A DNA stretch of 64,000 nucleotides from Escherichia coli. Its GTDB lineage: Bacteria > Pseudomonadota > Gammaproteobacteria > Enterobacterales > Enterobacteriaceae. The stretch lies in NCBI RefSeq assembly GCF_048403405.1, contig NZ_CP183129.1. The stretch is one strand, 5' to 3'. The stretch's first letter is position 1; every line of letters begins with the position of its first letter. The translations under genes were made by a program, and so were the position numbers. The notes under the pieces are model-generated. The model saw only the letters and a list, made by a program, of their open reading frames with translations, was not told the origin of the DNA and ran no database searches. Positions 59,270 to 63,846 of the stretch are shown here, in pieces.

Positions 59270-60286
59270 ATGAGTGCCCACTATTTTAATCCACAAGAGA
59301 TGATCAATAAGACAATCATCTTCGATGAAAGGCCAGCGGCGTCAGTGGCATCATCATTCCATGTTTCTTATGGCATTGATAAAAACTTTCTTTTTGGTTG
59401 TGGTGTTTCAATCACGTCAGTTTTGTTACATAACAACGACGTGAGTTTTGTTTTCCACGTTTTTATTGATGCTATCCCTGAAGCCGATATCCAGCGTTTA
59501 GCCCAATTGGCGAAAAGCTATCGTACCTGTATCCAGATCCATCTAGTAAATTGTGAACGGCTTAAGGCATTACCGACGACCAAAAATTGGTCTATTGCCA
59601 TGTATTTCCGTTTTGTAATTGCAGATTACTTTATTGATCAACAAGATAAGATCCTTTACCTGGATGCTGATATCGCCTGTCAGGGAAACTTAAAGCCGCT
59701 GATAACAATGGATCTTGCCAATAACGTTGCTGCTGTTGTTACTGAACGCGATGCTAACTGGTGGTCGTTACGGGGTCAAAGTCTGCAGTGTAATGAACTT
59801 GAAAAGGGTTACTTTAATTCAGGTGTCCTGTTAATTAATACACTAGCGTGGGCGCAGGAGTCCGTTTCTGCTAAAGCGATGTCGATGCTTGCTGATAAAG
59901 CCATCGTTTCCCGTTTAACCTATATGGATCAAGATATCCTTAATCTTATCCTGTTAGGGAAAGTTAAATTCATTGATGCTAAATACAATACGCAATTTAG
60001 TTTAAATTATGAATTAAAAAAATCATTTGTTTGTCCAATTAATGATGAAACCGTATTAATTCATTATGTCGGCCCGACAAAACCCTGGCATTACTGGGCC
60101 GGTTATCCAAGTGCGCAACCTTTTATCAAAGCCAAAGAAGCATCGCCCTGGAAAAATGAACCGTTAATGCGGCCAGTTAACTCAAACTATGCTCGTTATT
60201 GCGCCAAGCATAATTTTAAACAAAATAAACCAATTAACGGGATAATGAATTATATTTATTATTTTTATTTAAAGATAATAAAATGA
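59270..60286 (+). CDS. waaO: LPS core alpha-1,3-glucosyltransferase, GT8 family (WaaO/WaaI-like)
   Basis: GT8 hallmarks (YLDAD, HYVGPTKPW); first of three GT8 paralogs after waaP. Symbol assigned from the R1/R4 gene order, not from sequence identity. Confidence 0.7.
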   Translation: MSAHYFNPQEMINKTIIFDERPAASVASSFHVSYGIDKNFLFGCGVSITSVLLHNNDVSFVFHVFIDAIPEADIQRLAQLAKSYRTCIQIHLVNCERLKALPTTKNWSIAMYFRFVIADYFIDQQDKILYLDADIACQGNLKPLITMDLANNVAAVVTERDANWWSLRGQSLQCNELEKGYFNSGVLLINTLAWAQESVSAKAMSMLADKAIVSRLTYMDQDILNLILLGKVKFIDAKYNTQFSLNYELKKSFVCPINDETVLIHYVGPTKPWHYWAGYPSAQPFIKAKEASPWKNEPLMRPVNSNYARYCAKHNFKQNKPINGIMNYIYYFYLKIIK

Positions 60287-60302
60287 AATTGAGAAAAGTT
60301 AA

Positions 60303-61298
60303 ATGAATGAATTTATAAAAGAACGGTTTTCGTATTTAGCAGATAATAAAAAAGAAAACGCCCCAGAGCTAAATGTTTCCTACGGTATCGATAAGAATTT
60401 TTTGTATGGTGCTGGCGTTTCAATTTCTTCCGTTTTGATTAATAATTCAGATATTAATTTTGTCTTTCATGTTTTCACTGATTATGTGGATGATGATTAT
60501 TTAAAGTCATTTAATGAAACAGCAAAACAATTTAATACCTCAATTATTGTATATTTAATTGACCCCAAATACTTTGCTGATCTGCCGACGTCACAGTTTT
60601 GGTCGTACGCGACATACTTCAGGGTATTGTCTTTTGAATATCTGAGTGAAAGTATTTCCACACTGCTGTATCTGGATGCCGATGTTGTTTGTAAAGGAAG
60701 CCTGAAACCTCTCACAGAAATTATATTTAAAGATGAGTTTGCTGCGGTCATTCCTGACAATGATAGTACTCAGGCGGCATGTGCAAAACGCCTCAACATT
60801 CCCGAAATGAATGGACGTTATTTCAATGCAGGCGTTATCTATGTCAATCTTAAAAAATGGCATGAAGCAAATTTGACACCGTATTTACTCAAACTTTTAC
60901 GAGGGGAAACTAAATATGGCTCTCTTAAATATTTAGATCAGGATGCGTTGAATATCGCATTTAATATGAATAATATCTACCTTGCGAAGGATTTTGATAC
61001 TATTTATACCCTGAAAAACGAACTTTATGATCGTAGTCATCGAAAGTATCAGCAAACCATTACCGATAAAACAGTGTTGATTCACTATACAGGGATAACT
61101 AAACCATGGCATAGCTGGGCTGGATATCCGTCTGCATCATACTTTAATATCGCGCGTGAACAATCTCCCTGGAAGAAATATCCTCTTAAAGAGGCGCGGA
61201 CTGTTGCAGAAATGCAGAAACAATATAAGCATCTGTTTGCCCATGGTGAGTATATAAAAGGCATAACTTCATTAATTAAGTACAAGCTTAAGAAATAA
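60303..61298 (+). CDS. waaT: LPS core alpha-1,2-glycosyltransferase, GT8 family (WaaT-like)
   Basis: GT8 motifs (LYLDADVVC, HYTGITKPW); second GT8 paralog, positioned before waaY as in R1/R4 loci. Confidence 0.6.
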   Translation: MNEFIKERFSYLADNKKENAPELNVSYGIDKNFLYGAGVSISSVLINNSDINFVFHVFTDYVDDDYLKSFNETAKQFNTSIIVYLIDPKYFADLPTSQFWSYATYFRVLSFEYLSESISTLLYLDADVVCKGSLKPLTEIIFKDEFAAVIPDNDSTQAACAKRLNIPEMNGRYFNAGVIYVNLKKWHEANLTPYLLKLLRGETKYGSLKYLDQDALNIAFNMNNIYLAKDFDTIYTLKNELYDRSHRKYQQTITDKTVLIHYTGITKPWHSWAGYPSASYFNIAREQSPWKKYPLKEARTVAEMQKQYKHLFAHGEYIKGITSLIKYKLKK

Positions 61299-61307
61299 AT
61301 TACTCTT

Positions 61308-61973: not shown

Positions 61974-62012
61974 AAGGCAAAGCGTAAACCACACAGTCAA
62001 AACGGAACCAAC

Positions 62013-63041
62013 ATGGATTTATTAGCTGAGAGTATTACTGAAGTCACTGTCTCTGGGAAAATTACTAACACCGATCGTGTGTTAAATATCGCTTACGGTA
62101 TTGACCGCAACTTTTTATTTGGTGCGGCAGTATCTATGCAATCAGTTATTATGCATAACCCGGACCTTGCGGTTAAGTTTCATCTCTTTACCGACTACAT
62201 TGATGAAGATTATCTACAACGTGTTAACGCTTTTACCAGCAAAAATGCTAACGTTGAAGTAAGAATTTATAAAGTCTCCAGTGCCTTTATTGATATCTTC
62301 CCCAGCCTGAAACAGTGGTCTTATGCAACATTCTTCCGTTTAGTTGCGTTCCAGTATCTGAGTGAAGTTATTGAAAATCTGTTATATATCGATGCTGATG
62401 TCATCTGTAAAGGCTCATTAGCTGGATTGCTTGATATTAATTTTGATGGCGATAAGTTCGCAGCTGTTATTAAAGATGTGCCTTTTATGCAGGAAAAACC
62501 AGCGAAGCGTCTGGCTATAGAGGGACTTCCAGGTAATTATTTCAACGCCGGTGTAGTATATCTGCAGCTTGAAGCATGGGCGAAAAATGATTTTATGAAT
62601 AAAGCCATTGCTATGCTGGCAAGTGACCCGCAGCATACGAAGTATAAATGCCTTGATCAGGATATTTTAAATATTCTGTTCTTTGGTCATTGTATTTTTA
62701 TTAGCGGCGATTATGATTGCTTTTATGGCATTGACTATGAGTTAAAAAATAAAAGCGATGAAGATTATAAAAAGACCATTACCGATGATACTAAGCTGAT
62801 TCATTATGTTGGCGTAACGAAGCCCTGGAACGACTGGACGAATTATCCCTGCCAGAAGTATTTTAATGAGGCTTATCAGGCTTCTTGCTGGAATGATGTG
62901 GCGTTTATTCCAGCCACGAATGAAAAGCAGTATCAAGTGAAATCCAGACATTTGAAAAGAAATGGTAATATTGCATCTTCATTTTACTATTTCATGCTCT
63001 ATTATAGTAAGAAAATAGCGCGTAAGCATTTTTCCAAATAA
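62013..63041 (+). CDS. waaW: LPS core alpha-1,2-glycosyltransferase, GT8 family (WaaW-like)
   Basis: GT8 motifs (LYIDADVIC, HYVGVTKPW); third GT8 paralog after waaY. Confidence 0.6.
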   Translation: MDLLAESITEVTVSGKITNTDRVLNIAYGIDRNFLFGAAVSMQSVIMHNPDLAVKFHLFTDYIDEDYLQRVNAFTSKNANVEVRIYKVSSAFIDIFPSLKQWSYATFFRLVAFQYLSEVIENLLYIDADVICKGSLAGLLDINFDGDKFAAVIKDVPFMQEKPAKRLAIEGLPGNYFNAGVVYLQLEAWAKNDFMNKAIAMLASDPQHTKYKCLDQDILNILFFGHCIFISGDYDCFYGIDYELKNKSDEDYKKTITDDTKLIHYVGVTKPWNDWTNYPCQKYFNEAYQASCWNDVAFIPATNEKQYQVKSRHLKRNGNIASSFYYFMLYYSKKIARKHFSK

Positions 63042-63072
63042 TTATTAAGATTAATCACCCAGAGATTTTTTA

Positions 63073-63846
63073 ATGAACTTGCCCATTTATATTGTCTCAC
63101 TTAAAAGAGATATTGAGCGAAGAAATAAAATAAATGATGTTTTTCATCGATTAAATATTAATTTTGATTTTTTTGATGCCATAGATGCTAAAGACCCTCA
63201 AAATAAAGAAATTATTGATAAAATGAGATTAAGTGGTGTCGGCGCAGAAATGACTGATGGAGAAATTGCTTGTACATTAAGTCATCAGCTTATATATAAG
63301 GATATGATAGATAAAAATATAGAATGGGCAGTCATTCTCGAGGATGATGTTATCGTCAATGAGAAATTTAAAAAATTTCTGCAATATTTTAATCTTCCTG
63401 AAAAAGACAAGTTAAAACATAATAATTTGTATTTGCTTGGAGGACAGAAAGGATTACATGATTATCCGGTATTGGGGCAAAGCCTTTTTAGTAAAGTTAA
63501 GGTAAGTACTTGTACTTTTCGGCGTGTTAATTTCAATAAAAATAAAATTCGTCGTACATGTTCATATTTGATGAATAAAGATATGGCACAAAAGTTGCTT
63601 AAATTGACAAAGGATTATGGCACCTATCGAGCTGATAGCTGGAAGTTAATGCATCAACATAATATTATAAAAGAGTTTTATTTAGACGAAATAATATTAC
63701 ATCCTATTTTAAATGAGTTTAATAGTCATCTTGAAAGTGAAAGGCTATTAACATCGGAAAAAAAACAACCTAGAACAAGGCTTCAGAAAAGAATGAAGTT
63801 TATACGCTCCTGGATAAAGGTGGCTTTTTTTTCTCTTTTGAAATGA
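63073..63846 (+). CDS. LPS core beta-glycosyltransferase, GT25 family (WaaV of R1 or WaaX of R4 type)
   Basis: N-terminus MNLPIYIVSLKRDIERRNKI... and LEDDV motif typical of GT25 (Lic2/LgtB-like) enzymes; terminal position in the outer-core block. Confidence 0.65.
   Translation: MNLPIYIVSLKRDIERRNKINDVFHRLNINFDFFDAIDAKDPQNKEIIDKMRLSGVGAEMTDGEIACTLSHQLIYKDMIDKNIEWAVILEDDVIVNEKFKKFLQYFNLPEKDKLKHNNLYLLGGQKGLHDYPVLGQSLFSKVKVSTCTFRRVNFNKNKIRRTCSYLMNKDMAQKLLKLTKDYGTYRADSWKLMHQHNIIKEFYLDEIILHPILNEFNSHLESERLLTSEKKQPRTRLQKRMKFIRSWIKVAFFSLLK

Follow-up and report, generated by a model that had tools for sequence, protein, structure and literature searches.

The waa locus in this stretch of Escherichia coli DNA is almost certainly that of an R4-type outer core, with the order waaQ-G-P-O-T-Y-W-X followed by waaL, and belongs to neither the K-12 nor the R1 type. 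It represents known biology and is ordinary apart from a rare 13-bp deletion in waaY. The DNA analysed, referred to here as the window, is 64,000 nucleotides long and ends 40 codons into waaL, the locus being read up to position 64000. Gene identities, gene order, the R4 genotype and a leader element are read directly from it, and the structure of the core is predicted from the genotype.

Gene content and order of the locus

On the plus strand, 3′ of waaP, the open reading frames encode a GT8 protein, a second GT8 protein, a WaaY kinase, a third GT8 protein and a GT25 protein by NCBIfam and Pfam families, corresponding to waaO-waaT-waaY-waaW-waaX; the start of waaL follows. An earlier note made from the same DNA had proposed this succession of families and claimed that it was of the R1/R4 type rather than that of K-12. 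Both claims are borne out, by the open reading frames at exactly the coordinates listed below, by the NCBIfam and Pfam assignments, by the RefSeq annotation of near-identical genomes, which gives the same gene order, and by the different order found in MG1655. The genes thus form an annotated cluster and not a chance pattern, and many complete genomes share 99.8% identity with the 8-kb locus. The features are as follows.

56197..56235, plus strand: JUMPstart RNA element in the waaQ leader (Rfam RF01707, 55.2 bits against a gathering score of 35)
56285..57343, plus strand: waaQ (rfaQ), heptosyltransferase III (NCBIfam NF007742, 708 bits against a cut-off of 467; 98.9% identical to E. coli W, 72% to K-12)
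57340..58464, plus strand: waaG, GT4 glucosyltransferase I (RefSeq annotation of the near-identical locus; 99.2% to W, 89.6% to K-12 WaaG)
58457..59254, plus strand: waaP (rfaP), heptose(I) kinase (NCBIfam NF011703, 479 bits against a cut-off of 170; start according to RefSeq)
59270..60286, plus strand: waaO, GT8 alpha-1,3-glucosyltransferase adding GlcII (Pfam GT8 and GT8C; 99.4% to W WaaO, 50.3% to K-12 WaaO)
60303..61298, plus strand: waaT, GT8 alpha-1,2-galactosyltransferase adding GalI (Pfam GT8; UniRef Q9ZIS6 by exact-sequence look-up; 100% to the E. coli W protein, 43% to K-12 WaaJ)
61308..61973, plus strand: waaY (rfaY), heptose(II) kinase, C-terminally truncated allele of 221 aa against 230 (PF06176; NCBIfam NF007684, 384 bits against a cut-off of 248; tail comparison)
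61964..61965, plus strand: junction of the 13-bp deletion (CGCAAATTTATTA missing relative to other R1/R4 genomes in alignments)
62013..63041, plus strand: waaW, GT8 alpha-1,2-galactosyltransferase adding GalII (Pfam GT8; 100% to R4 strain TUM14771, 92.4% to R1 strain W; R1R4-R primer site at 62882-62901)
62944..64000, plus strand: R4-specific segment, made up of the final 98 nt of waaW, then waaX and the beginning of waaL, in which the similarity to R1 loci breaks down
63073..63846, plus strand: waaX, GT25 beta-1,4-galactosyltransferase, the R4-defining gene (Pfam PF01755, 175 bits against 24; UniRef Q9ZIS2; R4-F primer site at 63243-63261; 29.8% GC)
63881..64000, plus strand: 5′ end of waaL, O-antigen ligase in its R4 form, with a GTG start and 40 codons (40 of 40 aa as in WaaL of R4 strain TUM14771; start unlike R1 WaaL)

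The waaO product scores 610 bits against the NCBIfam equivalog cut-off of 461 of PRK15171, and the source name of the protein is "UDP-glucose:(glucosyl)LPS alpha-1,3-glucosyltransferase". A match of the GT8 genes to K-12 WaaO or WaaJ would have spoken against an R1/R4 order; they are 99-100% identical to WaaO and WaaT of R1/R4 loci and 92-100% to WaaW, and only 31-50% to the two K-12 proteins. In the leader, a motif search found the ops motif GGCGGTAG at 56224-56231, inside the JUMPstart element. A consensus scan of 55800-64000 for promoters and terminators returned sites no more numerous than in shuffles.

The R4-defining segment

What distinguishes R4 from R1 lies at the end of waaW and beyond. 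The earlier note had left the terminal GT25 gene as waaV or waaX; this was right in that waaX is a GT25 gene, yet waaV, as found in E. coli W, belongs to GT2. Exact-sequence look-up of the product returned UniRef Q9ZIS2, "Beta-1,4-galactosyltransferase", and BLASTP of WaaX against WaaV gave no match better than E = 5. The gene is accordingly WaaX, without similarity to WaaV, and not a third protein resembling neither of them. In the R1 control, E. coli W, the gene following waaW encodes WaaV, a GT2 protein of 327 aa, whereas an unrelated GT25 protein of 257 aa occupies this place in the window. Since WaaV is a GT2 protein and unrelated to GT25, the GT25 family of the terminal gene, already given in the earlier note, alone excludes R1.

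The probability that the locus is an R1 core ending in WaaV, towards which the closing remark of the earlier note leaned, is close to nil, even though the stretch from waaQ to most of waaW shares 98-100% identity with E. coli W, an R1 strain whose WaaT is the same protein (100%). When waaW is compared with that of W, 13 mismatches fall within its first 931 nt and 51 within its last 98 nt; megablast matches in R1 genomes end at query positions 931-958, and from 62944 on the sliding identity to R1 is down to about 40-48%. Moreover, the start of waaL has the R4 form: the first 40 aa are identical to WaaL of TUM14771 (R4), whose other 377 aa correspond to sequence beyond the window end, and over their full length the R4 and R1 ligases share only 35% identity. 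Even when 3 mismatches are tolerated, the window contains no R1-F site. The R1 control locus carries both a GT2 waaV after waaW and an R1-F site, and the window has neither.

The N-terminal ~100 residues of WaaX match GT25 chains with solved structures, at E = 2e-13 for the bacterial 8xc8 and at about 1e-5 for the GT25 domain of human procollagen galactosyltransferase 1, which is consistent with a beta-galactosyltransferase fold of the GT25 type; for WaaX itself, the search returned no structure. The linkage it makes differs between sources, being beta-1,4 in UniProt and PMC13293308 and beta-1,3 in the review PMC3526765.

In silico core typing and frequency

Core-type PCR, one of the checks put forward in the earlier note, was run in silico with the primers of Trofimova et al. 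2025 (PMC13293308), allowing up to 3 mismatches and using the R1 and K-12 loci as positive controls. Only R1R4-R (62882-62901) and R4-F (63243-63261) bind, giving an amplicon at 62882-63261 of 380 bp, which is the published R4 product and the only one obtained. The controls yielded the published sizes, 842 bp for W (R1) and 1,442 bp for MG1655 (K-12), and the window offers no site to any R1, R2, R3 or K-12 primer at up to 3 mismatches. This includes all four primers of the R2 (waaK/waaZ) and R3 (waaJ/waaD) pairs. As for K-12, neither K12-F nor K12-R has a site, BLASTP found no counterpart of WaaS, WaaB or WaaZ, and for WaaU there was only a weak match, to the heptosyltransferase WaaQ (25% over 106 aa). 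The K-12, R2 and R3 types are therefore ruled out by gene content, identities and primers.

An R1/R4 hybrid, with a second waaV-waaL set of the R1 form past position 64000 or at another place in the genome, was also considered. One such arrangement has been described, in ECOR46 (PMC13293308), and the window stops 40 codons into waaL; nevertheless, we judge a hybrid to be very improbable. The window is collinear to its last base with canonical R4 genomes such as TUM14771, where waaC-waaF-rfaD directly follow waaL, the 8 kb are nearly identical to these genomes apart from the 13-bp deletion, and the part of the locus within the window has no insertion sequence or waaV fragment. A single, canonical R4 locus remains the preferred reading.

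The R4 segment was detected in 691 of 5,426 complete E. coli genomes (12.7%) and the R1 form in about 1,834, in agreement with the published shares of 12.3% for R4 and 35.4% for R1. R4 is enriched in phylogroups D, F and G. A remark in the earlier note, that the R1 core is common in extraintestinal and diarrhoeagenic strains, does not apply to this locus, as it is R4.

The truncated waaY allele

The 13-bp deletion, not mentioned in the earlier note, shifts the frame of the last 11 waaY codons, and the protein ends in ...LKN in place of its conserved basic C-terminal tail (...LRKFIKKLKGKA); shown with more residues, ...TKLRKFIKKLKGKA becomes ...TKLKN. The exact deletion is absent from all 2,525 genomes carrying this waaY, and the exact 221-aa protein, to which NCBI gives the name RfaY, is on record from a single contig. 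One of the 2,525 genomes, strain MSB1_6C, has a 12-bp in-frame deletion at the same spot, the two deletions lying within one base of each other. A 226-aa member of the RfaY cluster (P0049) was examined as a carrier of the 12-bp deletion and rejected; it has a normal tail and a shorter N-terminal start call.

The match to the WaaY family stops at position 221 of 229 of the model, with the conserved R220 and K227 changed or lost, and its score stays well above both cut-offs (NF007684 and PF06176). All 31 aligned database homologues, the most distant being 41% identical, keep the full tail, with R220 and K227 at least 90% conserved. In the AlphaFold model, residues 208-226 form one confident terminal helix (pLDDT blocks of 91, 92 and 83), of which the truncation would remove about one third. 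The kinase core retains all its invariant residues, only the last 11 of 230 residues being affected. The idea that the tail is an amphipathic membrane anchor is weakly supported: the last 12 residues have a hydrophobic moment of 0.61, a value reached by about 11% of shuffles. The moment is not significant, and AlphaFold places the tail at the end of one long helix (208-226) and not in a detached segment.

On the basis of this allele, HepII phosphorylation in the strain may be reduced and inner-core phosphorylation may be atypical. Perhaps, then, an R4 genotype goes together with an altered core, in which an inactive or weak WaaY would leave HepII under-phosphorylated and the core with less negative charge. 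In Salmonella, a change of this kind makes cells more tolerant of cationic antimicrobial peptides. The exchange of a conserved basic tail for ...TKLKN, the universality of that tail among the 31 homologues, the predicted loss of about a third of the terminal helix and the rarity of the allele (one contig, with none of 2,525 genomes sharing the deletion) all speak for such a core, as does the finding that waaY loss-of-function mutations in Salmonella confer resistance to antimicrobial peptides at low fitness cost (PMC3720879). Yet the intact kinase core, the fact that only the last 11 of the 230 WaaY residues are hit, and the NCBI name RfaY given to the 221-aa protein argue against it; the in-frame deletion of MSB1_6C suggests that the tail is partly dispensable, the amphipathicity of the tail is not significant, and the deletion could be an assembly error. 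We consider an altered core possible but less likely than not. That the deletion is a genuine natural hypomorphic or null HepII kinase allele in an otherwise standard R4 strain seems to us unlikely; such an allele, lying within one base of the independent 12-bp deletion of MSB1_6C, would point to a small deletion hotspot in the part of waaY that encodes the tail, possibly with selection for a less negative core by cationic antimicrobial peptides or phage.

Predicted assembly of the core and significance

We infer the chemistry of each assembly step from established knowledge of the enzymes and from the source names. The region corresponds to the distal part of the waaQ operon, which would be transcribed from the waaQ promoter, and the JUMPstart/ops sequence in its leader would recruit RfaH, allowing RNA polymerase to read through a long AT-rich operon. 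At the cytoplasmic face of the inner membrane, WaaG would add GlcI to HepII, WaaP would phosphorylate HepI, WaaQ would add HepIII and WaaY would phosphorylate HepII. WaaO would then add GlcII (alpha-1,3), followed by GalI (alpha-1,2) from WaaT and GalII (alpha-1,2) from WaaW. A beta-1,4-galactose side branch on GlcII from the GT25 enzyme WaaX is expected to set R4 apart from R1, where the unrelated GT2 enzyme WaaV, a beta-1,3-glucosyltransferase, would provide a beta-glucose instead. Finally, the cognate R4 WaaL would ligate O antigen in the periplasm.

The core type fixes the O-antigen ligase and the attachment site used, and it influences the recognition of rough and semi-rough cells by phages and anti-core antibodies. 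R4 status is useful for strain typing, being linked to phylogroups D, F and G. Since about 12% of sequenced E. coli are R4 and published tools can type it, the locus holds no new biology, and the truncated waaY is the only item with some potential. If real and loss-of-function, this allele would be a natural example of the class of mutations that gives Salmonella tolerance to antimicrobial peptides.

Comparison with known waa loci

The K-12 locus of MG1655 occupies the same chromosomal site, between waaA/coaD and waaC/waaF/rfaD, and has waaQ, waaG and waaP in common with the window at 72-90% identity. Its order, waaP-S-B-O-J-Y-Z-U-L, is unlike that of the window, where waaS, waaB, waaZ and waaU have no counterparts. 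Outer-core proteins are only 38-52% identical to their K-12 counterparts (WaaO 50% and WaaY 52%; WaaT 43% and WaaW 38% to K-12 WaaJ). The R1 locus (E. coli W; prototype F470) is far closer, with 98-100% identity to the window across waaQ, G, P, O, T, Y and the first 931 nt of waaW and with the same main-chain chemistry in R1 and R4, Glc-Glc-Gal-Gal. From 62944 on, however, the two are unrelated, R1 having a GT2 WaaV and a WaaL 35% identical to that of R4, and R4 a GT25 WaaX. Among GT25 proteins of known structure (8xc8 and human procollagen galactosyltransferase 1), only the N-terminal part of WaaX aligns, and the acceptor differs, being an LPS core glucose for WaaX and a collagen hydroxylysine for procollagen galactosyltransferase. 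The R4 locus itself (prototype F2513; UniProt Q9ZIS-series) differs from the window in that waaY here has the 13-bp deletion and encodes 221 aa, and that 40 waaL codons fall within the window. The order waaQ-G-P-O-T-Y-W-X-L is the same in both, WaaX and WaaT return UniRef Q9ZIS2 and Q9ZIS6, and the published R4 PCR product is reproduced in silico from the window.

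Organization of the core locus

Eight open reading frames, tightly spaced or overlapping, occupy the + strand between 56285 and 63846, and the start of the O-antigen ligase gene follows them. Families were assigned with NCBIfam and Pfam:

56285-57343, +, waaQ (NF007742, 708 bits)
57340-58464, +, waaG (GT4)
58457-59254, +, waaP (NF011703, 479 bits)
59270-60286, +, first GT8 protein, WaaO (above the PRK15171 equivalog cut-off)
60303-61298, +, second GT8 protein, WaaT
61308-61973, +, WaaY/RfaY kinase (PF06176, NF007684)
62013-63041, +, third GT8 protein, WaaW
63073-63846, +, GT25 protein, WaaX (PF01755)
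from 63881, 5′ end of waaL (GTG start, running past the window end, 40 residues inside)

The order GT8, GT8, kinase, GT8, GT25 after waaP, as read in the earlier note, is exact in both content and coordinates, since the reading frames and the NCBIfam and Pfam assignments agree. Against solved GT25 structures, the match of WaaX is confined to its N-terminal ~100 residues.

In the waaQ leader lies a JUMPstart element at 56197-56235 (Rfam RF01707, 55.2 bits, gathering score 35). It includes the ops motif GGCGGTAG (56224-56231), which sits 54 nt upstream of the waaQ start, as expected for an RfaH-dependent operon. The ops motif would recruit RfaH for transcription through the long operon. GC content drops stepwise from 47-48% in waaQ, waaG and waaP to 35-38% from waaO through waaW and to a low of 29.8% for waaX; the window average is 47.6%. 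Outer-core regions that are exchanged horizontally usually show such a drop.

The enzyme steps of the R1/R4 assembly system were reportedly described by Heinrichs et al. in 1998. Judging by the source database names and the literature on R1/R4 assembly, WaaG would add GlcI and WaaQ HepIII, WaaP and WaaY would phosphorylate HepI and HepII, respectively, WaaO would add GlcII (alpha-1,3), WaaT GalI (alpha-1,2) and WaaW GalII (alpha-1,2), WaaX would add a beta-Gal side branch and WaaL would ligate the O antigen. WaaO is a "3-alpha-galactosyltransferase" in NCBIfam and an alpha-1,3-glucosyltransferase in other sources; for WaaX the linkage is given as beta-1,4-Gal in UniProt Q9ZIS2 and PMC13293308, but as beta-1,3-Gal in a review (PMC3526765).

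Assignment to the R4 core type

Four independent lines of sequence evidence assign the locus to the R4 core type. The earlier note had left the terminal gene as either waaV (R1) or waaX (R4). Exact-sequence look-up identified the GT25 protein as WaaX (UniRef Q9ZIS2_ECOLX, "Beta-1,4-galactosyltransferase") and linked the second GT8 protein to Q9ZIS6_ECOLX; WaaX, the R4-specific gene product, is described as a beta-1,4-galactosyltransferase (Trofimova et al. 2025, PMC13293308). In the R1 strain E. coli W, the gene 3′ of waaW encodes a 327-aa GT2 protein (PF00535, 136 bits), which gave a best BLASTP E value of only 5 against the GT25 protein of the window. The R1 enzyme WaaV and the R4 enzyme WaaX are thus members of separate glycosyltransferase families, and R1 was therefore already excluded by the GT25 call itself.

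Core-type PCR was run in silico with the nine primers of PMC13293308, allowing up to 3 mismatches. Only two primers bind, R1R4-R (62882-62901, + strand) and R4-F (63243-63261, - strand), each without a mismatch, and their product is exactly the published R4 size of 380 bp; at this tolerance no site for R1-F or for any R2, R3 or K-12 primer occurs in the window. Controls returned the published 842 bp for E. coli W (R1) and 1,442 bp for MG1655 (K-12). Furthermore, the part of waaL inside the window, 40 codons, encodes the same residues as WaaL of TUM14771, an R4 genome, and is unlike the R1 WaaL start, the full-length R4 and R1 ligases sharing only 35% identity.

A sharp R1/R4 boundary falls at 62944, codon 311 of waaW, where identity to E. 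coli W changes from 98.6% to ~48% (13 mismatches in the first 931 nt of the gene, 51 in the last 98 nt). Because divergence starts here and megablast agrees, with matches in R1 genomes ending at positions 931-958 of the query 62013-64000, the R4-specific cassette spans ~62944-64000 in the window, and everything upstream is sequence common to R1 and R4. Since the boundary is inside waaW, the last 32 residues of WaaW are core-type specific despite the one gene name in R1 and R4.

The interpretation of an R1 or R4 core is supported and sharpened to "R4 core type", its R1 half falling to the GT2 family of WaaV, the missing R1-F site and the waaL start. The remark that the R1 core is common in extraintestinal and diarrhoeagenic strains is true in itself but inapplicable to this locus.

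Truncation of waaY

Alignment to TUM14771 counts 8,014 bases there versus 8,001 in the window, the difference being a single 13-bp deletion (CGCAAATTTATTA) after 61964 (junction 61964/61965), which shifts the frame of the last waaY codons, so that the conserved basic tail is lost.

C-termini of WaaY
Normal R1/R4: ...YRTKLRKFIKKLKGKA, 230 aa
Window: ...YRTKLKN, 221 aa
MSB1_6C (12-bp in-frame deletion): ...YRTKLQKLKGKA (...TKLQKLKGKA), 226 aa

The deletion of MSB1_6C (NZ_LR890714.1) lies one base from that of the window, at ~1540 in a locus where rfaY spans 884-1564. Apart from these deletions, the window, MSB1_6C and TUM14771 share the same sequence over the surrounding 3 kb, but across all 8 kb identity to the window is lower for MSB1_6C (99.5%) than for TUM14771 (99.8%). 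The two deletions may have arisen independently or one after the other, and this part of waaY, which encodes the tail, may be a small hotspot for deletions.

Of the 2,525 genomes that carry this waaY, 0 have the 13-bp deletion and one, MSB1_6C, has the 12-bp deletion; for the 221-aa protein the only record comes from a single contig (WP_418512022.1 / XPM00857.1). The allele may be neutral, or the deletion an assembly artefact. The basic R-x-x-[IL]-[KR]-[KR]-[IL]-K-G-K-like end is kept in all 31 aligned database homologues, down to 41% identity, with R220 and K227 conserved in at least 90% of them. In the AlphaFold model (mean pLDDT 92.1) residues 208-226 form one confident terminal helix, of which the truncation is predicted to remove roughly the last third; a weakly supported role of the tail is that of an amphipathic anchor. 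In Salmonella, loss-of-function mutations in waaY made cells more tolerant of LL-37 and other cationic peptides, with a fitness cost of ~1% (PMC3720879). That the truncated allele is functionally defective is a tentative and somewhat doubtful reading, and the truncation deserves mention as a minor curiosity of this strain.

Distribution and comparison with other core types

The waaW of the window, covering R1 and R4 together, was found in 2,525 of 5,426 complete genomes; the R4 part is also covered in 691 (12.7%), the remaining ~1,834 (33.8%) being of the R1 kind. These counts agree with the published typing of 4,505 genomes (12.3% R4, 35.4% R1), where phylogroups D (60.9%), F (51.4%) and G (84.9%) are enriched in R4. 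The analysis bears the finding out, and an R4 core locus is textbook, already-typed biology.

In the same search (query 62013-64000), 3 of 2,532 waaW matches were on plasmid records, not chromosomes. Strain 405 (NZ_CM132948.1) has an annotated IS1-family transposase inside the matched R4 waaW-waaX-waaL stretch. In SCU-484 (NZ_CP051744.1) the annotation marks frameshifts in several waa genes, possibly the result of homopolymer errors in the assembly.

The 8 kb at 56000-64000 match many complete E. coli chromosomes over their full length at 99.8% identity. RefSeq annotates these as rfaQ, waaG, rfaP, waaO, a GT8 protein, rfaY, a further entry (quoted passage not shown), a GT25 protein and an O-antigen ligase, with rfaC, rfaF and rfaD next on the opposite strand.

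By BLASTP, K-12 WaaS, WaaB and WaaZ have no counterpart at the window locus, and the sole match of K-12 WaaU is a weak one to the heptosyltransferase WaaQ (25% over 106 aa). The GT8 proteins do not match K-12 WaaO or WaaJ, as the claim of a backbone unlike K-12 had anticipated:

Protein identity to R1, R4 and K-12 counterparts
WaaO: 99.4% E. coli W (R1); 50.3% MG1655 WaaO
WaaT: 100% E. coli W (R1); 43% MG1655 WaaJ
WaaY: 98% E. coli W (R1); 52% MG1655 WaaY
WaaW: 92% E. coli W (R1); 100% TUM14771 (R4); 38% MG1655 WaaJ

Judged by gene content and identity, the locus clearly does not belong to the K-12 type; at the same chromosomal site, K-12 MG1655 carries waaP-waaS-waaB-waaO-waaJ-waaY-waaZ-waaU-waaL.
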